This document shows positions 3,401 to 60,818 of a stretch of 64,000 nucleotides of DNA, piece after piece; the first letter of the stretch is position 1; the number at the start of each line of letters is the position of its first letter. Origin of the DNA: Octopus sinensis. Taxonomy: Eukaryota. Under the pieces are notes generated by a model. The model ran no database searches. It was not told the origin of the DNA and saw only the letters and a list, made by a program, of their open reading frames with translations. The stretch is taken from positions 8,494,001 to 8,558,000 of the forward strand of contig NC_043003.1 of assembly GCF_006345805.1 (NCBI RefSeq), written 5' to 3'. The translations under genes were made by a program, and so were the position numbers.

Positions 3401-4154
3401 TCAGCAAAAAAAATACACTCATATCTTCATCCAATAATTTTTTACGGGTATTCAAATTCAATTAATAATGGAAAAATTTCATATGAAAATAATGAATTGA
3501 AAGTTAATGGAAAATTCAGGAAAAATGTTTAGTTGTCATTCTTAATAAAATAATTTTTCTTTAAACGTCATAGCTGCTAAGAATTTAACACAGTCTAAAA
3601 CGGATCAATTTTGATGTTTTCGGTGTGTTTTTTGGGATTATGATACTTTTGGTGAGTGGATTTGTAGAGGAGATCTACTGAGAAATCAGGAAAATTGTGT
3701 ATTTTTAGGAATACTATTTAGATGTTATGATTTATACAGAAGGTAGAACATGTAGAGATTCCCATTTGGTATACGCGGCAGAATGCACGAAACACAACTT
3801 GATTTATTGGTTGTGCAACAGAACAACTAAGCAAAATATTTCATGGAGACAGATATGACGTCGGGCGCAATAACAGTGGTCCGAAAGAACTTTCAGAGCA
3901 TTTTGCTTCAAACGGCTGCAATTTTGGAAAAAGACTTGAAAGTTCATATTCTCAGAAAGTATTCTGAATCTGCTTCACTTTCAATACATGTGGAGAAACA
4001 TGTTTGCGAGTTATTAACACCACGCCTTGGGGGAATGTGGAGGAATGGATAAAATGATAGAATATCATCAAATTTATACAAAACTGTTTGATTAAATGTT
4101 GTTTTTTCCTTTCTTTCTTTCTTTTTTCAGCTTCTTTCTTTTCGACAGTTATAA

Positions 4155-4200
<46 letters not shown>

Positions 4201-4216
4201 TAATAATAATAATAAT

Positions 4217-4615
4217 AACCAGGTGAGCATGTCCCTTAGTGGCTGACGATATGTGCATCTCTGATCACGAGCAGAAGTAGTGGGGGAGCATCATAGCCAT
4301 GTGTGGAGAGGGATTCTTTGGGTTTGAATAGTTCACCTCTGGAAACATGGGTGGTTCTTTCAACATCCTTAAACAACCCTTATTCAGGGACCGTTTGAGC
4401 GGGATGGGCTACTCAACCTGAAGAAAATTCTAATTGGGCCCCACCTGCAAGGTCATGTGCTGTTTAATTTGATATGAGATTACCATGTCGCGCACATATG
4501 GTTGTGATGCATGTGCCTGGTGTACCTTTATCAGACGGGTAGTCATGATGGGTATATTGGGCTTCGTATATTTTACCCCAGTGTCACTTTGATGGCATGA
4601 ACTGCTCTCTCACTC
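4217..4615 (+). mobile_element. Repeat family A copy 1 (5'-truncated, (AAT)n-tailed; probable 3' end of a non-LTR element)
   Basis: Near-identical to 5074-5543 and 17744-18211. All three end CTCTCTCACTC-(AAT)n. Confidence 0.7.
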
Positions 4616-4672
<57 letters not shown>

Positions 4673-4682
4673 TAATAATAAT

Positions 4683-5022
4683 GTGGTGACCCCCTTCGGT
4701 CAGACACAGACCATGGGTTTGCACCTAGAGAGTTACCCTCCCAGGCACAAGTCCGGGCAAGGTTGTTTATGGAAGACCAGCAGTTACCCATGCATACCAA
4801 CCTCCCCTCTTCACGCTACAGATGTTATCCAAGGGAAAGGCAAGGGCCGATACAGTTTGGCACCTGTGACGTCGCAACTCATTTTTACAGCTGAGTGAAC
4901 TGGAGCAATGTGAAATAAAGTGTCTTGCTCAAGAACACAACACGCAGCCCGGTCCGGGATTCGAGCTCACAACCTCACGATCGTAAGCTCGACGCTCTAA
5001 CCACTGAGCCACGCGCCTTCAC
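4683..5022 (-). mobile_element. tRNA-derived SINE (family B)
   Basis: Minus-strand head GGCGCGTGGCTCAGTGGTTAGAGCG...GCTCGAATCCC has A/B boxes, followed by a TTCTTGAGCAAGACACTT central domain. Near-identical copy at 18266-18605. Confidence 0.85.
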
Positions 5023-5024
5023 TA

Positions 5025-5073
<49 letters not shown>

Positions 5074-5543
5074 TGGTATAAAAGATGGGCTACAGCAAAT
5101 ATTCTGCTCAATACCACAGATTTGCTTGTCAGTTGTTTGACCTTAACCAGTTGAGCATGTCCCTTAGTGGCTGACAATATGTGCATCTCTGATCACGAGC
5201 AGAAGTAGTGGGGGAGCATCATAGCCATGTGTTGAGAGGGATTCTTTGGGTTTGAATAGTTCACCTCTGGAAACATGGGTGGTTCTTTCAACATCCTTAA
5301 ACAACCCTTATTCAGGGACCTTTTGAGCGGGATGGGCTACTCAACCTGAAGAAATTTCTAACTGGGCCCCACTTGCAAGGTCATGTGCTGTTTATCTTGA
5401 TATGAGATCATCATGTCGCGCACATATGGTTGTGATGCATGTGCCTGGTGTACCCTTATCAGACGGGTAGTCATGATGGGTATATTGGGCTTCGTATATT
5501 TTACCCCAGTGTCACTTTGATGGCATGAACTGCTCTCTCACTC
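5074..5543 (+). mobile_element. Repeat family A copy 2
   Basis: Direct similarity to copies 1 and 3, flanked by (AAT)n. Confidence 0.7.
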
Positions 5544-6360
5544 AATAATAATAATAGTCACGGCCAAATCCTTATACACTTTGCACATTTATTCAACAAA
5601 TACTTATACAGATTTATATTGTTGACGTATGTGTTTGGAAATTACTTCATAATGAAACAAAGAGAAAACAATGTTTTCCATTAGTTTTGTCTAAAGCGAG
5701 AGCAAGGTCATTATTAATAGGTGTGATGGAACTTGTTCAATAAAATTAGATGAAGAGAGAATCAATGTGTTCTTACCGTTTTTCATCGATCGCTTCTTGT
5801 TTCGTGTAATGTTGCTTTCATAAAAATTAATTGTAGAGGTGTTCTCAAATAATGTTGAAGAGTAGAAGTCAAAAGTTTATTTATATTTTATATTATTAAT
5901 GTAATTTTAGTTCAGACAATTCGACAATATCCTGTAATTTTATCAATTTATTATTTGCCAAGTATATGAATTGTAACCTTGGAAACTGATAGTTCTGAGA
6001 AAATTCGTGTGAAAATTTCTCATACGGTTTGAATAGTTCTTTTCTTTTTGTTTGTATCGTTTTTCGCTTGGTGTTTACATAATAAGCGACATATGTGATT
6101 CTAGTAATTAAAGAGGGGCACTAGATCGTATACTACAATTTTAGTAAATGAAGTTCTATTTATTAGTACTGGTTAGTTTAATGTGGAGGTTATTCATGAG
6201 ATGATTCTATCGAGAATGCCCTTCTATGTAGGCGCAAATATAGCACTGTGGTTAAGAAACTAAATTTGCAAACAAATGGTTCGTCGGGTTCGGCCCTACC
6301 GCTTTGGGGCGAATAATGCCTTGGGATTGAACTTATAGACGGAAAAATGTGAGAAAACCC

Positions 6361-7330: not shown

Positions 7331-7396
<66 letters not shown>

Positions 7397-7708
7397 TTTA
7401 TTTAAAGCAGCAGAAAATTCAACAAAACCTGTTACTCTGAGTTTCCCGTTGCTGTTCATCGGACAGTTTTTGCTAGAATATATATATATATATATTTTAT
7501 TTAAAAGCAGCAGAAATTTTTAAAAAACTGTTACTCTGAGTTTCACGTTCCCGTTCGTCGGACAGTTTTGTCCGACGAACGGGAACGTGAAACTCAGAGT
7601 AACACGTTTTGTTGAATTTCTGCTGCTTTTAAATAAGGCATATTACTCTAACCCTGGTATTTGAGTACTCTTTTTTCCATCCTGTTTCACATTTATGTGT
7701 TTACTCCA

Positions 7709-7710
<2 letters not shown>
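7397..7710. mobile_element. Palindromic/tandem element in (TA)n with three minimal hammerhead-like motifs (U4C variant)
   Basis: Inverted arms ~7497-7565 and ~7569-7637, plus an extra minus-strand copy at 7397-7466. Confidence 0.7.
7569..7604 (+). ncRNA. Putative minimal type I hammerhead ribozyme, core CCGACGA
   Basis: TGT-CCGACGA-ACG-GGAA-CGT-GAA-ACTCAGAGT-A-ACA, with a GUA cleavage triplet. Confidence 0.6.
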
Positions 7711-7773
<63 letters not shown>

Positions 7774-19028: not shown

Positions 19029-19167
19029 AAAAGACTACTATTTACTATTGTACTTTATTGATTTTTAGAATAAGGTTTTTTTATAATATATGTTTTCTAT
19101 ATGGTGTGAATAACATCTTTCATTATTGAATTGATTAATAGAGGTTTTACTCTAAATTATATACATA
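18798..19167. repeat. Imperfect inverted repeat (~130-bp arms) around a (TAG)n tract
   Basis: AATGAAAGATGTTATTCACACCATA on the left versus TATGGTGTGAATAACATCTTTCATT on the right. Confidence 0.8.
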
Positions 19168-19184
19168 CATACATATACATACAT

Positions 19185-19215
<31 letters not shown>

Positions 19216-19263
19216 CATATAATATATATATTATATATATATATATTATATATATATATATAT

Positions 19264-21582
19264 TATAAAACAAGAAGGGTAGTAATATTATTTACTACCA
19301 GGTGCCCAGCACAAAAGACGAATTAGTATAAGACAAAAATATTATTCATATAGAAAAATATTATTCATGTAGTTATACAATTAAGGGCTCCTAAATAAAG
19401 ATGCCGAGTGCTGGGAACACCAAAAGGGGGATGATTTATCGAGAGTGAAAATCAAAAACGTTTACCGATAACTTTAACAACTCGTACCGCGGTTTCTGCT
19501 TCTTTCTAGCAAAACACAGAATATGTTTGCTAAGGCCAGCTTCATCAGCGAGTTGCCTGAATTTAATCGAGGTCTGCAGCGATGTGGGGCTATACGTTAA
19601 ACCCGACTACTAGCAGATCTTAACTTTTCAAATCTCTGCGCAGACGCAAAATTTACGCGGGCATGCCGGGAAGAATTTTACGAATAATTCATCATGTAGT
19701 ATGCGAATATAAACAAGAAGGGTAGTAATATTATTTACTACCAGGTGCCCAGCACAAAAGACGAATTAGTCATAAGACAAAAATATATTCATATAGAAAA
19801 ATATTATTCATGTAGTTATACAATTAAGGGCTCCTAAATAAAGATGCCGAGTGCTGGGAACACAAAAAGGGGATGAATTTATCGAGAGTGAAAATCAAAA
19901 ACGTTTACCGATAACTTTAACAACTCGTACCGCGGTTTCTGCTTCTTTCTAGCAAAACACAGAATATGTTTGCTAAGGCCAGCTTCATCAGCGAGTTGCC
20001 TGAATTTAATCGAGGTCTGCAGCGATGTGGGGCTATACGTTAAACCCGACTACTAGCAGATCTTAACTTTTCAAATCTCTGCGCAGACGCAAAATTTACG
20101 CGGGCATGCCGGGAAGAATTTTACGAATAAATTCATCATGTAGTATGCGAATATAAACAAGAGGGTAGTAATATTATTTACTACCAGGTGCCCAGCACAA
20201 AAGACGAATTATCATAAGACAAAAATATTATTCATATAGAAAAATATTATTCATGTAGTTATACAATTAAGGGCTCCTAAATAAAGATGCCGAGTGCTGG
20301 GAACACAAAAAGGGGATGAATTTATCGAGAGTGAAAATCAAAAACGTTTACCGATAACTTTAACAACTCGTACCGCGGTTTCTGCTTCTTTCTAGCAAAA
20401 CACAGAATATGTTTGCTAAGGCCAGCTTCATCAGCGAGTTGCCTGAATTTAATCGAGGTCTGCAGCGATGTGGGGCTATACGTTAAACCCGACTACTAGC
20501 AGATCTTAACTTTTCAAATCTCTGCGCAGACGCAAAATTTACGCGGGCATGCCGGGAAGAATTTTACGAATAATTCATCATGTAGTATGCGAATATAAAC
20601 AAGAAGGGTAGTAATATTATTTACTACCAGGTGCCCAGCACAAAAGACGAATTAGTCATAAGACAAAAATATTATTCATATAGAAAAATATTATTCATGT
20701 AGTTATACAATTAAGGGCTCCTAATAAAGATGCCGAGTGCTGGGAACACAAAAAGGGGATGAATTTATCGAGAGTGAAAATCAAAAACGTTTACCGATAA
20801 CTTTAACAACTCGTACCGCGGTTTCTGCTTCTTTCTAGCAAAACACAGAATATGTTTGCTAAGGCCAGCTTCATCAGCGAGTTGCCTGAATTTAATCGAG
20901 GTCTGCAGCGATGTGGGGCTATACGTTAAACCCGACTACTAGCAGATCTTAACTTTTCAAATCTCTGCGCAGACGCAAAATTTACGCGGGCATGCCGGGA
21001 AGAATTTTACGAATAAATTCATCATGTAGTATGCGAATATAAACAAGAAGGGTAGTAATATTATTTACTACCAGGTGCCCAGCACAAAAGACGAATTAGT
21101 CATAAGACAAAAATATTATTCATATAGAAAAATATTATTCATGTAGTTATACAATTAAGGGCTCCTAAATAAAGATGCCGAGTGCTGGGAACACAAAAAG
21201 GGGATGAATTTATCGAGAGTGAAAATCAAAAACGTTTACCGATAACTTTAACAACTCGTACCGCGGTTTCTGCTTCTTTCTAGCAAAACACAGAATATGT
21301 TTGCTAAGGCCAGCTTCATCAGCGAGTTGCCTGAATTTAATCGAGGTCTGCAGCGATGTGGGGCTATTTAAACCCGACTACTAGCAGATCTTAACTTTTC
21401 AAATCTCTGCGCAGACGCAAAATTTACGCGGGCATGCCGGGAAGATTTTACGAATAAATTCATCATGTAGTATGCGAATATAAACAAGAAGGGTAGTAAT
21501 ATTATTCTACCAGGTGCCCAGCACAAAAGACGAATTAGTCATAAGACAAAAATATTATTCATATAGAAAAATATTATTCATG
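19264..21582 (-). repeat. Tandem array of ~444-bp hammerhead-containing units, left arm (~5.2 units)
   Basis: Unit starts at about 19271, 19714, 20158, 20600, 21044 and 21485. HHR motifs on the minus strand at 19478-19555, 19921-19998, 20364-20441, 20807-20884 and 21252-21329. Confidence 0.95.
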
Positions 21583-24398
21583 GCCTTAGCAAACACTATT
21601 CTGTGTTTTGCTAGAAAGAAGCAGAAACCGCGGTACGAGTTGTTAAAGTTATCGGTAACGTTTTTGATTTTCACTCTCGATAATTCATCCCCTTTTTGTG
21701 TTCCCAGCACTCGGCATCTTTATTAGGAGCCCTTAATTGTATAACTACATGAATAATATTTTTCTATATGAATAATATTTTTGTCTTATGACTAATCGTC
21801 TTTTGTGCTGGGCACCTGGTAGTAAATAATATTACTACCCTTCTTGTTTATATTCGCATACTACATGATGAATTTATTCGTAAAATTCTTCCCGGCATGC
21901 CCGCGTAAATTTTGCGTCTGCGCAGAGATTTGAAAAGTTAAGATCTGCTAGTAGTCGGGTTTAACGTATAGCCCCACATCGCTGCAGACCTCGATTAAAT
22001 TCAGGCAACTCGCTGATGAAGCTGGCCTTAGCAAACATATTCTGTGTTTTGCTAGAAAGAAGCAGAAACCGCGGTACGAGTTGTTAAAGTTATCGGTAAA
22101 CGTTTTTGATTTTCACTCTCGATAAATTCACCCCTTTTGTGTTCCCAGCACTCGGCATCTTTATTTAGGAGCCCTTAATTGTATAACTACATGAATAATA
22201 TTTTTCTATATGAATAATATTTTTGTCTTATGACTAATTCGTCTTTTGTGCTGGGCACCTGGTAGTAAATAATATTACTACCCTTCTTGTTTATATTCGC
22301 ATACTACGATGAATTTATTCGTAAAATTCTTCCCGGCATGCCCGCGTAAATTTTGCGTCTGCGCAAGATTTGAAAAGTTAAGACTGCTAGTAGTCGGGTT
22401 TAACGTATAGCCCCACATCGCTGCAGACCTCGATTAAATTCAGGCAACTCGCTGATGAAGCTGGCCTTAGCAAACATATTCTGTGTTTTGCTAGAAAGAA
22501 GCAGAAACCGCGGTACGAGTTGTTAAAGTTATCGGTAAACGTTTTTGATTTTCACTCTCGATAAATTCATCCCCTTTTTGTGTTCCCAGCACTCGGCATC
22601 TTTATTTAGGAGCCCTTAATTGTATAACTACATGAATAATTTTTTCTATATGAATAATATTTTTGTCTTATGACTAATTCGTCTTTTGTGCTGGGCACCT
22701 GGTAGTAAATAATATTACTACCCTTCTTGTTTATATTCGCATACTACATGATGAATTTATTCGTAAAATCTTCTTCCCGGCATGCCCGCGTAAATTTTGC
22801 GTCTGCGCAGAGATTTGAAAAGTTAAGATCTGCTAGTAGTCGGGTTTAACGTATAGCCCCACATCGCTGCAGACCTCGATTAAATTCAGGCAACTCGCTG
22901 ATGAAGCTGGCCTTAGCAAACATATTCTGTGTTTTGCTAGAAAGAAGCAGAAACCGCGGTACGAGTTGTTAAAGTTATCGGTAAACGTTTTTGATTTTCA
23001 CTCTCGATAAATTCATCCCCTTTTTGTGTTCCCAGCACTCGGCATCTTTATTTAGGAGCCCTTAATTGTATAACTACATGAATAATATTTTTCTCTATAT
23101 GAATAATATTTTTGTCTTATGACTAATTCGTCTTTTGTGCTGGGCACCTGGTAGTAAATAATATTACTACCCTTCTTGTTTATATTCGCATACTACATGA
23201 TGAATTTATTCGTAAAATTCTTCCCGGCATGCCCGCGTAAATTTTGCGTCTGCGCAGAGATTTGAAAAGTTAAGATCTGCTAGTAGTCGGGTTTAACGTA
23301 TAGCCCCACATCGCTGCAGACCTCGATTAAATTCAGGCAACTCGCTGATGAAGCTGGCCTTAGCAAACATATTCTGTGTTTTGCTAGAAAGAAGCAGAAA
23401 CCGCGGTACGAGTTGTTAAAGTTATCGGTAAACGTTTTTGATTTTCACTCTCGATAAATTCATCCCCTTTTTGTGTTCCCAGCACTCGGCATCTTTATTT
23501 AGGAGCCCTTAATTGTATAACTACATGAATAATATTTTTCTATATGAATAATATTTTTGTCTTATGACTAATTCGTCTTTTGTGCTGGGCACCTGGTAGT
23601 AAATAATATTACTACCCTTCTTGTTTATATTCGCATACTACATGATGAATTTATTCGTAAAATTCTTCCCGGCATGCCCGCGTAAATTTTGCGTCTGCGC
23701 AGAGATTTGAAAAGTTAAGATCTGCTAGTAGTCGTTTAACGTATAGCCCCACATCGCTGCAGACCTCGATTAAATTCAGGCAACTCGCTGATGAAGCTGG
23801 CCTTAGCAAACATATTCTGTGTTTTGCTAGAAAGAAGCAGAAACCGCGGTACGAGTTGTTAAAGTTATCGGTAAACGTTTTTGATTTTCACTCTCGATAA
23901 ATTCATCCCCTTTTTGTGTTCCCAGCACTCGGCATCTTTATTTAGGAGCCCTTAATTGTATAACTACATGAATAATATTTTTCTATATGAATAATATTTT
24001 TGTCTTATGACTAATTCGTCTTTTGTGCTGGGCACCTGATAGTAAATAATATTACTACCCTTCTTGTTTATATTCGCATACTACATGATGAATTATTCGT
24101 AAATTCTTCCCGGCATGCCCGCGTAAATTTTGCGTCTCTGCGCAGAGATTTGAAAAGTTAAGATCTGCTAGTAGTCGGGTTTAACGTATAGCCCCACATC
24201 GCTGCAGACCTCGATTAAATTCAGGCAACTCGCTGATGAAGCTGGCCTTAGCAACATATTCTGTGTTTTGCTAGAAAGAAGCAGAAACCGCGGTACGAGT
24301 TGTTAAAGTTATCGGTAAACGTTTTTGATTTTCACTCTCGATAAATTCATCCCCTTTTTGTGTTCCCAGCACTCGGCATCTTTATTTAGGAGCCCTTA

Positions 24399-24406
<8 letters not shown>
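21581..24406 (+). repeat. Tandem array of the same ~444-bp unit, inverted right arm (~6.4 units)
   Basis: HHR motifs on the plus strand at 22006-22083, 22445-22522, 22891-22968, 23338-23415, 23781-23858 and 24226-24302, plus a truncated one at 21581-21642. Confidence 0.95.
22006..22083 (+). ncRNA. Type I hammerhead ribozyme motif (representative of 11 copies)
   Basis: CAACTCG-CTGATGA-[A GCT..TAGCAAA..TTTGCTA..AGC A]-GAA-ACCGCGGT-A-CGAGTTG: 7-bp stem I, canonical core, palindromic stem III, and a GUA site (predicted cut after 22076). Confidence 0.8.
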
Positions 24407-24438
<32 letters not shown>

Positions 24439-31440: not shown

Positions 31441-34400
31441 TCCTTAACCTAGCTACTTAACAGTGGAACTGAACTCAAACAATGTGGTTTCAAAGCAAGC
31501 GTCTTGACCACACGGACGCACCTGCGAGAATCATTTCCTTTAAAACGGGATGGTCAAGACTCTTATAACTTTACTGGTAAATCAACTCGACCTCGACAGA
31601 GTTTGAACTCAGAACGAAATGCCACTATGTATTTTGCCCGGCTTGCTAACGATTCTGCCAGCTCGCCGCTTTATGTATATGAATGGTAGTGGTTTCGGAT
31701 TTAGACACTCTGCTTGATGAGAGTTACACAACAAAAACTGCCATGAAATTGATTAGTGACGCAATTTCTTAGAAACACAACAGGAACAACAGCGAAGTTA
31801 ATTACGATGTCAGATTTAAACAGAGTAATTTTCTAATTTATAAATCAGTGACCAGTTGTCACTTTGAAAACTATATATTCTGAACGGGAATTTGGCAGCG
31901 CCACCTCTAGCCGAAAAATTATTCTGTGCTGATGAAGGGAAATAACCCGGAAATCGTGATACACAGATATTGTTTTGAGCTGAGTGTGGGGTGCTAGATT
32001 CCCTTGTTCGAAAATATAAGGACATAGATTGTGTCGTATAGCCAGCTGGAGACGATGTCTCCTGGGGCTAAATTACAGCAACATTAGTCCTAAACCAGGA
32101 CTGCCATGTTATGTTGGCAAATAATCTTTACTACAATTATTCTGGTATCCTACCATTCAGCCGTATCTTGTTTTCCGATAATGTCAGTTCCTTTTGATGT
32201 TTAATAAACGTGGTTAGATTTCCAAAGAAATTACAGATATACAATTACAAGGTCACGTGTATGTTAATAGACATGTAGCACTGTCGTCTGGAACCGCTTA
32301 TAATCCGCACTTACTTACACCGAGACACAGGTATCTGTATTTAATTTAAATATTGAATTGGCGGAAATTTAATATTTAAGTGTGTTGACCAAGGTGACAA
32401 GCTGTGGTTCGGAAAAATCAGAAATCCGGAAAACCTTTGGTACCAAAGGTTCCGGAAAATCAATATTGTGCCTGTAGTGCATATCTTACCGATTTTGGAG
32501 AAATGAAAGTAAAAGGTGACCACATGCGGAATCGAACTTAAGACATACAATGTTGAAACTAAATGAATTGCAGTATTTAATCTTTCCAATCTTTCTGCAA
32601 ATTTCATTTAATTACTTGAGATAATATTGATACCAAAGTTCCAGACGTAGTAAATTTTGACAAGAGCTTTTGAAAATATTGAATATGTCACTGGAATATT
32701 CCAAAGACTATACACATTTTTTTCTATAATTGAATTTCTGAACATTCTGTTATGTTATTTTCATTTCTATATATTAGATTTTCTTTGCACATCGCATCTG
32801 TGCACTTTTCTTCTCTTCAGATCAAAACTGTGGCTGCCACATTATTATATAATAGAATGTAACGGAATAGAAGTAATGACAGCGCGTTTCCGGTAAATCT
32901 TATTTGTAAATTCCATTCTAAAGACAGGAAGATGCGAAAGCAACCATTTCAAAGTGACATTTAGATCGATCTTGTTCATGAAATTGTTTGTTTTTTTAAT
33001 AAAAATTACATCTGCTTCTATCCATAGAAGTTAAATTTAAAGTTACTACAGATTCATACACCCATATATTCGTGCATCTAACGTATGCGTGTTTCAAATA
33101 CTTCCTACCGTATTGTCTAGAAGCAAATTAAAAATTAAATGAAGCAGATTAAATTACATAAACAAATACACAGATTCTTTCGATGTAACGAGTGAACCTC
33201 TTGGCGGTAAGACGAACTGCTAAAACGTCAGCCAAATATCCCTCATCAAGGTTACATAGGATAAGGTGATCCTATCGATACGATTTCAAGAAAAAGAAAC
33301 AGAAATGATTAAAGATGTGACCTCTATGATCATGCGTCGGCTCAGTTAAGACTGCTCTTGGTTGAAAAACAACAGAAGCCAGAAATGTCTTGCTCATTTG
33401 TGTGTGAAGACCTGAAGCATGATTTCGGAATAAAACCCTGTAGGTTTCTGCTCTGAAAGAAAATATATTTAAACAGAACACCTATATGCAAGTTCAACCA
33501 CTAGCTAAACCTTTGCTAAAACTCTCGATTTCTAACCACATTCAGTTCCACAGAACGGCAACTTGGTCAACTATCTTCTCTGCATTAAGAAATGTTTTGT
33601 GAGTGAACTCGGTACACAGAAGTTGCATGGAGGCCCATTTCATATAAATATATATCTATGTGTATATCTTTGTATCTGTGTTTGATCCCTTAACTTTCAG
33701 CTCTTGACAATAAGAGTTGGTTTGTTTGCGACATCGCAACTTAGTGGTTCGGCAAAAAAAAAACTGATAGAATAAATAACCGACTTAAAAATAAGTGCGG
33801 CAGACTATGTGTTCGTCTAACCCCTCCAAGGCCGCACAACAACGACTGAAACAAGGAAAATATAAAATCTAAAGGATTTCTTTAAAATTTTTCGCTTGGT
33901 TTTTCCTTTGCTTGTTTGGTCAATCGGGACCACAAGTCTCTAGAAGCACATTTCTCTGTCGGTAGAATTCCCTTATAAACACCGTTTGAGTCATTTGCTG
34001 GAAATATGCACAGCCATGGCTGAATGGAAAGAAGACTGCTTCCCAACCATCCGACATCATGGCTTTCGTTTCACCTTTGGCAAGTGTTTCCTGTAGCTCT
34101 CGGCTGACCAAAGCCTTGTGAGTGGATTTGATAAACTGAAAGAAAACCATCGTATCTGTGTCTGTGTGTGTGTGTAATACATCAAGTACAGAACATCACC
34201 AACGAGTAAAAACTGCATAAACACATAATGAGAGACAAGTACGTGACAAAATACTGGAAGAAGTCTAACTCCTCCTCAGTTGTCGACTATTAATTACTCC
34301 CTATTTCGAGCTTTCATATATCTACATGGTATACATATAAGATTCCAACACCTTATGAGTAAAATCCAATAGTATTTAAAATTGGTTATTCCAAGTATAG

Positions 34401-41074: not shown

Positions 41075-44000
41075 TTTTCTTCTTTCCAATTTCTTCTTCC
41101 ATTTCTTGCCGAGTGTCTTCCCGACTCCTAGGGCAAGAAACTCATAGTGTATATTGGTAGGCCATTAACCAAACTCAGTAGTTCGTTCATTTTTTTTTTT
41201 TAAGTTAAATTAAAATGCATGAGCAGCAACAGTTCTCACATCGACAATGCTCTTCTCAATACGTGTGATGTACCAGTTAAGACAATCTTTTGCACTTCTT
41301 GCAGGGATGGTAAGCCAGGGATCATTCTCATATAATTTTCGGTTCCCTTCTTGATCATTCCTAGTGCTCCTACGATCACTGGTATTGTAACCGCCTTGAG
41401 ATGCCACATTTTCTCAATTTCAATGAGTAGGTCTTTATATTTTCTGAGCTTGTCAAACTCTTTCGCTGAGATATTATGATCACAGGGGATGCTCATGTCG
41501 ATCAATAAGCAAACTTTATTGTTTTGGTCTTTCACAACAATATCTGGTTTATTGGCCTTGATGGTTCGATCTGTATGTACTGGAAAGTCCCACAGAATGG
41601 TTACATTTTCTCCTTCAGTTACAGCCTCAGGGTGGTGATTATACCACTTGTCGGCAGTTTTGATATTGTAATGCCGACTTATTAGCCAGTGGAGATATTG
41701 GCCAACTCTGTCATGTCTTAATTTTACTCCACTGGTGCTGCTAGACTTTACATCCAGAGATTAGGTGGTCCACTGTTTCAATCATGTCGTTGCAGAATCG
41801 GCATTTTGGGTCTGCTCCATTTTTCATCACATTGGCCTGGTAGTTCCGGGTTGATAGGCTTTGGTCTTGAGCAGCCAGGATGAAACCTTCGCTCTCTGAG
41901 TTTAGCCCTGAGCTCCGCAGCCACTGATGGGTTTGCTTCTGGTCAACATCAGCTTGTTTGCTGCAGGTCACATATTTGCCGTGCAGAGGTTTCTCCTCCC
42001 ACCTATCAGCCAATTGCTCGTGCGCTTTTTTCATTGCCATCATTTTCACCTTCTTTGCAACAATAGTTGCCGTACTTCCCTCGGGTTGTTCAGTTTGGGT
42101 ATCCTGCACGAGATCAATAGCAAATTTTTTGCTTTCCTTGATGATAGAATGAAGCTTCTTTCGTCTCTCGTGATTTTCCACGAGCTTTAGCATCCAGTCA
42201 TTCGATATTTCGAGATATTTGGCCAGTCCAATTGTGGTTGTTTTGTAAGCTAGTTCAAATTGGATCAGGCCTCGACCTCCTTGGGCTCTGGGAAGGTAAA
42301 GGCGATCTACATCTGCCTTGGGTGGTGCATCCTATTACAACTCAGCAGCTTGCGTATTTTTCTATCTATATTTTTACTTCACTCATATTCCAGTTCAACA
42401 CATTGTAGCTATAAGTAACAACTGGAACTGCTAGGGAATTTATAGCTAACACCTTTAGTTTTAAGTCATCCATATAAAATAGATGGCTTATTTTTTTATT
42501 GGCAAGTTTATACCCATACCCTGTTCTGTTTAATTCACTTGTAAGGGGTATTAGGGTTATGCAGAATATTAAAGGTGAAAGTGAGTCACCTTGAAAAATT
42601 CCACAGTTGATGTTTATATTTTCTGAGGCAAGTACTCCATTAGAGTGGTATAATTGGAGATTCGTATTCCACAATGACATATTGTGCTTCAGGAAGTTTG
42701 AAATCACAGGGGAAATTTTGAAGATGTCCAGCGATCTCAAGATCCATGGATGCGGTATACTGTCGAAGGCCTTTTTATAGTCAATCCATGCGGTGCTGAG
42801 ATTTCTGCGCTTGTTGTGACAGTTCTCAAGGATCATACGATTGATTAGCAGTTGATCTTTGCATCCGTAAGAGCCTCGGCGGCACCCTTTTTGTTCAATG
42901 GGGAAAATATCGTTCTTCTCCATGAATGCATATGTTTTCTCCGCCAGGATAGATGTTAGGATTTTATACGTGGTGGATAGACAGGTTATAGGCCGATAGT
43001 TTTTTGGAAGGTTGGTTTCGTTATTCTTTGGGAGTAGGTAAGTAACGCCACTTGCTAACCATTCAGGTGTTTTCTTTGGGTCTCTCATAATTCCATTGAG
43101 CAGCTGAACTAGCTTACCGTGTGCGCACGGGAGCGATGCGAGCCAGAAATTCGGCACCCTATCTTTACCGGGGGATTTCCAATTATGGGCCTTCGTGAGT
43201 GCCTTTCTTAGGTCTGCTATTGTGATGTCTTCCCATGCTTGTTGTTGTAAATTTTGGTAGGATCCTTCAGTTTGTATAATCCAGTCTGCATTTATGTTGT
43301 ACGTCTTCTTGTCACTCCAAATCCTTTTCCAAAAGTGTTGAACTTCTTCCATGGGAGGGGGGTCTTTAACGGTTACTTTCTCCTTCCCTATTTCTCTGTA
43401 GAAATTTTTGGCATTGGATGTGAACAGCTTATTTTGCTTGTAAAACTTGTTTCTCTTCTCAATCTTCGTATTCTTGGGCTTTTGCTTGGACTTTTTGTTT
43501 CAGCGTTTCTTTTATTGATATCAGTTCTTCTCTTGGTGAGGATCCAAATTTTCTCTTCATCTTTCTTCCTGTTCTGGATCTTACATCATTTCCACATATT
43601 AGTTCATTTAATATTGATATTTCCCCTCTCATAAATTCAATCTCTTTTTCAATTTTACTTCTCCAGGTTTGATTTCTTCCCAGGTTTTGTTTTCTTTGTT
43701 TTTTCGGGGGCATACAGCTGGTTTCAATTGCCCTAGCAGAAGCGTAAATAATTTCATTTAACTCAGTAAAATCAGGTTTTAATTCTCGTATTATTTCATT
43801 TGTTACATAGTTGCCAATTTGGATTGTTTTTTATTTTGGTTTGTATTTGAGAGTTTATGAAGCGGTTCTCTATCATTCATACTTGTATGTCTTACAACTT
43901 CAAGCGTATTCAGGATCTTCTGCCTCATTTCTGCTATAGACTCTCTGTGTTCTTCAGCAAATGCGAGATCTTCAGTTACTGTTGTTTTTTCGTTTTCCTG

Positions 44001-49833: not shown

Positions 49834-50575
49834 AAGGCGGCGAGCTGGCAGAAACGTTAGGCGAAATGCTTAGCGGTATTTCGTCTGCCGTTACGTTGTG
49901 AGTTCAAATTCCGCCGAGGTCGACTTTGCCTTTTATCCTTTCGGGGTCGATAAATTAAGTACCAGTTACGCACTGGGGTCGATATAATCGACTTAATACC
50001 TATGTCTGTCCTTGTCTGTCCCCTCTATGTTTAGCTCCTGGTGGGTAATAAAGAAATAGGTATTTTGTCTGCCGCTATGTTCTGAGTTCAAATTCCGCCG
50101 AGGTCGACTTTGCCTTTTATCCTTTCGGGGTCGATAAATTAAGTACCAGTTACGCACTGGGGTCGAAATAATCGACTTAATCCGTTTGTCTGTCCTTCTT
50201 TGTCCCCTCTGTGTTTAGCCTCTTGTGGGTAATAAAGAAATAGGTATTTCGTCTGCCGTTACGTTCTGAGTTTAAATTCCGCTGAGGTCGACTTTGCCTT
50301 TCATCCTTTCGGGGTCGATTAAATAGGTACCAGTTACGCACTGGGTTCGATATTATCGACTTAATCCATTTGTCTGTCCTTGTTTGTCCTCTCTGTGTTT
50401 GTCCTCTCTGTGTTTGGCCCCTTGTGGGTAGTAAAGAAATATGCATTTCGTCTGTCTTTATGTTCTGAGTTCAAATTCCGCTGAGGTTGACTTTGCCTTT
50501 TACCCTTTCGGGGTAGATAAATCAAGTACCAGTTGCGTACTGGAGTCGATCTAATCGACTGCCCCGCTCCCAAAA
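49834..50575 (+). mobile_element. SINE family C with four internal tandem ~184-bp bodies
   Basis: One head, then bodies starting at about 49876, 50060, 50244 and 50442. Confidence 0.85.
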
Positions 50576-60354: not shown

Positions 60355-60818
60355 TGATCTCGACAGAATATGAACTCAGAACATAGCGACGGGCTTATAC
60401 CTATTTCTTTACTATCCACAAGGGACTAAACACAGAAGGGACAAACAAGGACAGACAAACGTATTAAGTCGATTATATCGACTCCAGTGCGTAACTAATA
60501 CTTAATCTATCGACCCCGAAAGGATGAAAGGCAAAGTCGACCTCGGCGGAATTTAAACTCAGAACGTAACGGCAGACGAAATACCTATTTCTTTACTACC
60601 CACCAGAGGCTAAATACAGAGAGGACAAACAAGGACAGACAAATGGATTAAGTCGATTATATTGACCCCAGTGCGTAACTGGTACTTATTTAATCGACCC
60701 CGAAAGGATGAAAGGCAAAGTCGACCTCGGCGGAATTTGAACTCAGAACGTAACGGCAGACGAAATACCGTTTGGCATTTCGCCCGGCGTGCTAACGAAT
60801 CTGCCAGCTCGCTGCCTC
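60355..60818 (-). mobile_element. SINE family C with internal tandem bodies
   Basis: Reverse complement of the 49834-50575 structure. Confidence 0.85.

Follow-up and report, generated by a model that had tools for sequence, protein, structure and literature searches.

A window of 64,000 nucleotides (nt) from Octopus sinensis (NC_043003.1, positions 8,494,001 to 8,558,000) contains, at its positions 19268 to 24406, a tandem array made of two head-to-head arms of 5.2 and 6.4 copies; the repeated 445-nt unit carries a predicted hammerhead ribozyme. The locus raises the question of how an array with two opposed arms is inserted and what fixes its ends. A first-pass annotation of the window read it as one twin-primed insertion of a concatemeric RNA, with the geometry of 5' inversions of LINE-1 (L1). 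A survey of related loci in the genome instead uncovered a pairing rule: head-to-head copies end at two fixed sites of the unit, and nearly all have exactly one end of the tailed kind. The array is probably a head-to-head retrozyme insertion made in trans by the reverse transcriptase (RT) and GIY-YIG endonuclease of a Penelope-like element (PLE), with both ends primed on the same RNA.

Alignment to the unit bore out the asymmetric orientation switch with its TG overlap that the first-pass annotation had described, together with the spacing of only 4 nt, within the unit, between the left-arm start and the right-arm end (positions 1 and 437-441). The fusion of both outer ends to (TA)n was likewise found by Tandem Repeats Finder (TRF) and in the sequence itself. 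The right end at ~24406 stands, and the array begins at 19268, beyond the 21560 to 24410 originally given. From its inner start at unit position 1, the left arm passes through five full turns and stops at position ~103 (site A, the tailed end), with 5 complete hammerhead cores; the right arm starts at position 277 and, following six full turns, stops at 437-441 (site B, the short end), with 6 complete cores (Table 1).

Table 1. Features of the head-to-head array, in window coordinates
Feature	Position	Strand	Basis or content
Left (TA)n target remnant	19158..19267		TRF period 2 and sequence
Left arm	19268..21582	-	5.2 units; hammerhead sense on minus strand
Head-to-head junction	21581..21582		2-nt TG overlap; left-arm position 1 meets right-arm position 277
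Right arm	21581..24406	+	6.4 units; hammerhead sense on plus strand
Predicted type I hammerhead, example	22890..22968	+	Fold, motif scan and variant pattern
Complete unit, used as genome query	23524..23966	+	443 nt, against 445 nt in cleaner copies; site A at ~23618-23630
Right (TA)n target remnant	24403..24438		TRF period 2 and sequence

Only 2 substitutions occur across the 11.6 units, and their haplotype is common to 8 multi-unit loci, which indicates that the array is young. Several single-base insertions or deletions of the window units are largely missing from short-read contigs of public sequencing runs and are therefore probably assembly errors. Contigs from 4 of 24 runs over 21470-21740 neither show nor exclude the junction, and none of the runs listed is recorded as RNA. 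The window is rich in microsatellites and in this resembles a cephalopod genome.

A DNA search of the genome with the unit gave 994 candidates, 40 of which were scored, so that family size is a lower bound throughout. These 40 places, the window included, form set 1 and were not chosen by array ends. Set 2 consists of 92 new stretches recovered with two exact end patterns (68 and 74 matches), and set 3, which was held out, of the 36 usable loci newly recovered with two variant end patterns (54 and 7 matches). In sets 2 and 3, (TA)n at one end was fixed by selection and the other end is what is tested. Second copies or fragments in L082, L113, L123, L145, L242, L260, and L286 were dropped before counting, as were L298 (the same locus as L260), 18 duplicate loci, and two loci truncated at their edge (L263 and L270). 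L097, which has no anchor, was left out of the microhomology counts only, and the left end of L057 and the right end of L059 were assigned to site B by eye.

The family is dispersed over many contigs. Among the 168 loci parsed, 105 are head to head, all in minus-then-plus order, and 63 have a single arm. Inner starts are scattered along the unit, and outer ends run into (TA)n at site A (unit positions 97-116) or site B (435-445), which lie 111 nt apart round the unit; at single-arm loci, TA is also found on the 5' side in 31 of 46 cases. The head-to-head loci comprise 89 A+B pairs, 14 of A with another end, 1 A+A, 1 of B with another end, and no B+B, i.e., exactly one tailed A end in 103 of 105. 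An apparent single B+B pair proved to be two separate A+B copies (L082). Nine of the 15 ends of other types fall at unit positions 396-417 or 8, close to B. Set 1 alone contains 24 head-to-head loci, 21 A+B and 3 A+other (heterotypic in 21/21; p = 5e-7), and the 19 in the held-out set are 13 A+B and 6 A+other, with no A+A. Either arm can far exceed the other: the A arm is the longer in 47 of 76 loci, and L043 has arms of 1,194 and 6,929 nt. In many short insertions (e.g., L070, L112, L118, and L153) both arms are copies of the same stretch. End pairing is strongly non-random, and the right-arm end in the window is a family-wide fixed site, independent of the point at which the left arm stopped.

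These counts support the proposal that the array is a retro-insertion primed on (TA)n, and they extend it to both target ends. They also agree with the earlier view that the inversion is not a fold-back artefact, which is excluded as a general cause by recurrence across loci with unrelated flanks. A long-read fold-back chimera or a misassembled satellite might explain the scattered single-base differences that short-read contigs largely lack. It is barely credible as an explanation of the array, whose flanks are unrelated and not mirrored, given 105 loci with fixed, differing ends and a second family that behaves alike.

Both arms of an insertion appear to descend from one template lineage, as the first-pass annotation had supposed. 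In 45 loci whose arms overlap over at least 150 unit positions, differences within a locus, between its two arms, affect 90 of 15,139 positions (0.6%), compared with 19,319 of 671,893 (2.9%) across loci, and private variants are present on both arms in 12 of the 45. Family-shared variants at positions covered at least three times were found in every copy in 131 of 157 cases and in all but one copy in a further 8, and 22 haplotypes were recorded among 30 multi-unit loci. Such uniformity suggests that each insertion passed through a bottleneck of a single unit, which is what copying from a circle would produce. Dual priming, in which two separate RNAs serve the two DNA ends in an asymmetric complex, would yield overlapping arms of unrelated length and, for L1, has been called indistinguishable from twin priming (PMC2837659). 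With 22 haplotypes in 30 loci it predicts frequent mismatch between arms, yet the arms match, private variants included; both RNAs would have to come from one source locus, and we regard this alternative as highly improbable.

At a single locus a 2-nt overlap means little, since overlaps of at least 2 nt occur in 17% of simulated random junctions. Across the family, such overlaps were found in 33 of 60 clean junctions, so that microhomology is enriched; inserted or unmatched bases occur at 44 of 104 junctions. The first-pass annotation had taken the 4-nt continuity between one arm's inner start and the other's outer end as a sign of L1 twin priming and had proposed that other copies be examined for it. 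They do not bear it out. Continuity within 5 nt is found in 5 of 89 A+B loci, where a uniform distribution predicts 2.2 and a length-matched control built from B arms gives 3 of 89. Within 40 nt the values are 30 of 89 and 25 of 89 for the control (Fisher p = 0.26; uniform null, 16.2), for long arms 13 of 40 and 10 of 40. Among held-out loci, continuity within 10 nt is seen in 0 of 13. A comparison with the uniform null gave apparent significance (within 40 nt, 27 of 76; p = 0.0003), which did not survive the use of B-arm lengths as a control, the excess arising because short arms are common. The 4-nt gap in the window is probably a coincidence or a minority outcome.

These data bear on twin priming of the L1 type, with a linear transcript more than 11 units long as template, in which the second primer anneals upstream and stops the first complementary DNA (cDNA). 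Such a process would produce the continuity of the window and of the few loci like it, the values above the uniform null, the enriched microhomology, and the single haplotype of the two arms. It is nevertheless very unlikely here: no excess is left against the length-matched control or among the held-out loci, the position of the second site does not vary, poly(A) is absent, and the two arms of many short insertions carry the same stretch. The insertion works like twin priming, in that two primers use one RNA lineage. It falls outside the definition given for L1 (PMC2837659) because it has no poly(A), a fixed second site, and no general continuity.

A weaker signal is double continuity, in which each arm stops near the start of the other and the arms sum to whole units. 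It was seen in 5 of 76 discovery loci (permutation mean, 1.45; p about 0.001-0.002) and is what two primers on one circle would give. Inner starts also appear to pile up just downstream of the predicted cleavage site (unit positions 331-375), a pattern that was set aside because an abundance of short arms, or the hairpin of stem II, may account for it.

The inverted layout could also arise from one priming event followed by self-priming of the cDNA (fold-back), with the endonuclease or TATA microhomology setting the second end. This resembles the self-priming idea of PMC3846280 and the endonuclease-resolution idea of PMC8557442. It accounts for the shared haplotype and for one tailed end; palindromic junctions have been reported for PLEs, and here more junctions are symmetric than permutation predicts (within 20 nt, 16 of 89 against a mean of 9.4; p = 0.02). 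However, 73 of 89 junctions are asymmetric, either arm may be far longer than the other, and PLE protein extends both strands from RNA in vitro (PMC11167929); on balance we consider fold-back distinctly unlikely.

The unit itself is 443-445 nt long, with a GC content of 0.36-0.39 over the array, and no stop-free frame longer than ~55 amino acids (aa) was found in any of its six frames. Motif scanning and folding place a hammerhead motif in every unit. Its predicted parts are stem I, a CUGAUGA core (22898-22904 in the example of Table 1), a long stem II, GAAA, and a palindromic helix III, with predicted cleavage at a UA site after 22961 (unit position 330). Two unit copies are predicted to co-fold via helix III, which corresponds to the dimeric hammerhead mode of PMC4209133. 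Over ~100 loci, core positions vary at 1.0% and other positions at 2.6%; position 7 is changed in 11 loci, and the cleavage base A is replaced by T or C in 24 and never by G. Hammerhead variants thus appear to lie mostly at tolerated positions. Together with its dispersal, these predictions give the unit every retrozyme feature tested for, and it is best classified as a putative non-LTR (LTR, long terminal repeat) retrozyme with a predicted self-cutting hammerhead.

For the insertion we propose the following, in which both-strand cutting and simultaneous priming are drawn from published in vitro data on PLEs. (i) A PLE RT/GIY-YIG endonuclease acting in trans would cut (TA)n on both strands. 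(ii) Two simultaneous priming events would then take place on one RNA, one DNA end at site A and the other at site B, through annealing via the TATA present at both sites. (iii) The two cDNAs would halt at variable points and be joined end to end by microhomology, and failure of one end would give a single-arm insertion. (iv) Multi-unit arms would result from several turns on a self-cleaved, re-ligated monomer circle. Whether such a circle is in fact the source of the multi-unit arms we judge to be about evenly balanced. A further step, which we advance only tentatively, is that a PLE RT dimer binds one circular retrozyme RNA asymmetrically at the two fixed sites and rolls from both cut ends. 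If this is true, the PLE tail, the inversion into head-to-head arms, and the ready-made tandem arrays would all follow from a single step, and the arrays would amount to genomic proof of RNA circles made by a ribozyme as the transposition template.

Array length might have a different history. A short head-to-head insertion could have been lengthened later by slippage or unequal crossing-over, which is compatible with the end rule and resembles the later growth proposed for retrozyme tandems (bioRxiv 10.64898/2026.07.22.740005). At L051, four private variants are duplicated in register on one arm, i.e., a unit was duplicated after insertion, and 10 private variants across the family occur in some but not all copies. 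However, the 8 multi-unit loci with the nearly substitution-free haplotype of the window include arrays of 6-12 units, and private variants fixed on both arms (7/7 copies at L061) fit pre-existing template variants better. We consider later growth unlikely as the main source of array length. The single copying event of more than 11 units in the first-pass annotation fits the window locus, with its 2 substitutions, but is unproven.

Several observations weigh against insertion by a PLE in trans or against the hammerhead assignment, in addition to the excess of symmetric junctions, which suits fold-back. First, double continuity is found in 0 of 13 held-out loci (0.15 expected), and its windows were picked after viewing the data. 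Second, shared haplotypes could also arise by gene conversion or from a homogeneous source array. Third, no anchored target-site duplication (TSD) of 25 nt or more was found in 86 inverted loci, where shorter ones would hide in (TA)n. Fourth, the tail is 111 nt here and 30-40 bp in published PLE insertions; priming in PMC11167929 needed no target homology, whereas both sites here carry TATA, and its start sites were alike on both strands, whereas those here are paired asymmetrically. Fifth, Rfam returned no hammerhead match for the whole window at the gathering score or for 22800-23600 at E values up to 10; stem II has an additional unpaired A on both sides, C3 of the core is changed to U in 6 loci, and a T277C change in stem II, present in 13 loci, is accompanied by a compensating change in 7 and not in the other 6. 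Finally, no autonomous PLE sharing the unit sequence was found by blastn, tblastx, or nhmmer against PLE-type loci (50 loci taken, with 150 of 5,029 GIY-YIG candidates scored). One single-arm copy (L054, 1753-3260) lies between 54-nt duplicated degenerate TA stretches and is the sole anchored TSD-like case among 132 loci (1 of 46 single-arm loci).

Three known systems come closest to the array. Non-LTR retrozymes (PMC7229834; bioRxiv 10.64898/2026.07.22.740005) are likewise dispersed tandem arrays, whose 150- to 450-bp units are low in GC, do not code for protein, and each contain a type I hammerhead, and they have been proposed as non-autonomous PLE partners with circle intermediates. A word search of PMC7229834 and the preprint found no head-to-head arms, fixed ends, tail, or (TA)n targeting, which are main features here, and the unit showed no homology to the pseudo-LTR (pLTR) of a PLE among the PLE-type loci compared. 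PLE insertions (PMC8557442, PMC3846280, and PMC11167929) share with the array a head-to-head, inverted, 5'-truncated copy, a tail at one end, two internal start sites, a (TA)n or AT-rich target, and a hammerhead upstream of the start sites. In PMC8557442 the tail is often at one end only, with a (TA)n bias, and in PMC3846280 the inverted layout is ascribed to self-priming. The PLE protein of PMC11167929 cuts and extends both target strands, two internal RT start sites bound the tail, and a dimer is predicted; circle copying was already raised for PLEs in PMC4209133. The 445-nt family differs in having no RT or endonuclease open reading frame (ORF) and multi-unit arms on both sides, and here the one-tail rule has been counted. 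L1 twin or dual priming (PMC2837659) also involves two target ends that prime cDNAs and inverted arms with short microhomology. In contrast to L1, both ends here lie at internal sites of the unit and are fused to (TA)n, the second of these sites being fixed rather than opportunistic; there is no internal deletion or readable TSD, and most of the loci sampled are inverted.

Neither the class of element nor its layout is new in itself, and what is added is the link between them and the counts. The first-pass annotation had not made the Penelope-like connection, i.e., that the 445-nt family shows the PLE insertion layout of an inverted copy, one tail, and (TA)n. No description of such an end rule in retrozyme arrays was found in the open literature, although subscription journals or bioRxiv supplements may contain one. 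PMC8557442 leaves undefined the origin of inverted PLE copies and the one-sided tail, and the preprint cited above leaves open whether retrozyme arrays are inserted whole or amplified later. The family provides more than 100 young, countable insertion records, with one end per site and one haplotype per insertion, and the end rule makes both questions directly testable with the 445-nt RNA.

PLE proteins are encoded elsewhere in this genome: a GIY-YIG search gave 147 matches among the 150 candidates scored, and ORFs combining RT and GIY-YIG domains of 781 and 775 aa were identified. Copies of the 781-aa family terminate in (TA)n, either at a short site or ~35 nt beyond it; L210, the one copy observed head to head, combines both kinds of end. 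A second hammerhead family is represented in the window at 7391-7712, where an element with a duplicated short arm is head to head at ~7561-7564, its short end and its ~70-nt tailed end both on (TA)n; among the loci examined, one short and one tailed end were found in 7 of 7 head-to-head copies. Neither this family nor the 781- and 775-aa PLE families were found to have any sequence in common with the 445-nt unit. The unit gave no tblastx match to the PLE-type loci examined, and no PLE could be linked to it via the GIY-YIG family, a second RT family, or a hammerhead pattern with a shorter stem II.

The 781-aa family (L192, 674-4374; L196, 2739-6439) is abundant and young. A 479-aa stop-free upstream frame with no Pfam match overlaps its RT and GIY-YIG frame, and motif scanning found no canonical hammerhead in its ~1.1-kb 3' region. 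A different hammerhead tandem array, with a period of ~470 nt, lies head to head at L090 (~3423-6201), switching orientation near 4675. Many more type I hammerhead-like motifs were noted in the flanks of L031 to L161 and at window position 31923; their differing stems and palindromic helix III loops suggest that PLE or retrozyme families are numerous in the genome. L299-L301 (~1500-1750) represent an older, unrelated hammerhead-like family that has the helix III palindrome in common with the unit and no other sequence.

Elsewhere in the window, three stop-free frames of 174-377 aa on the minus strand at 41239-43499 resemble, by eye, a broken non-LTR reverse transcriptase, and 184-bp tandem repeats at 49875-50560 and 60397-60769 (3.6 and 2.0 copies) are, also by eye, apparently similar to short interspersed nuclear elements.

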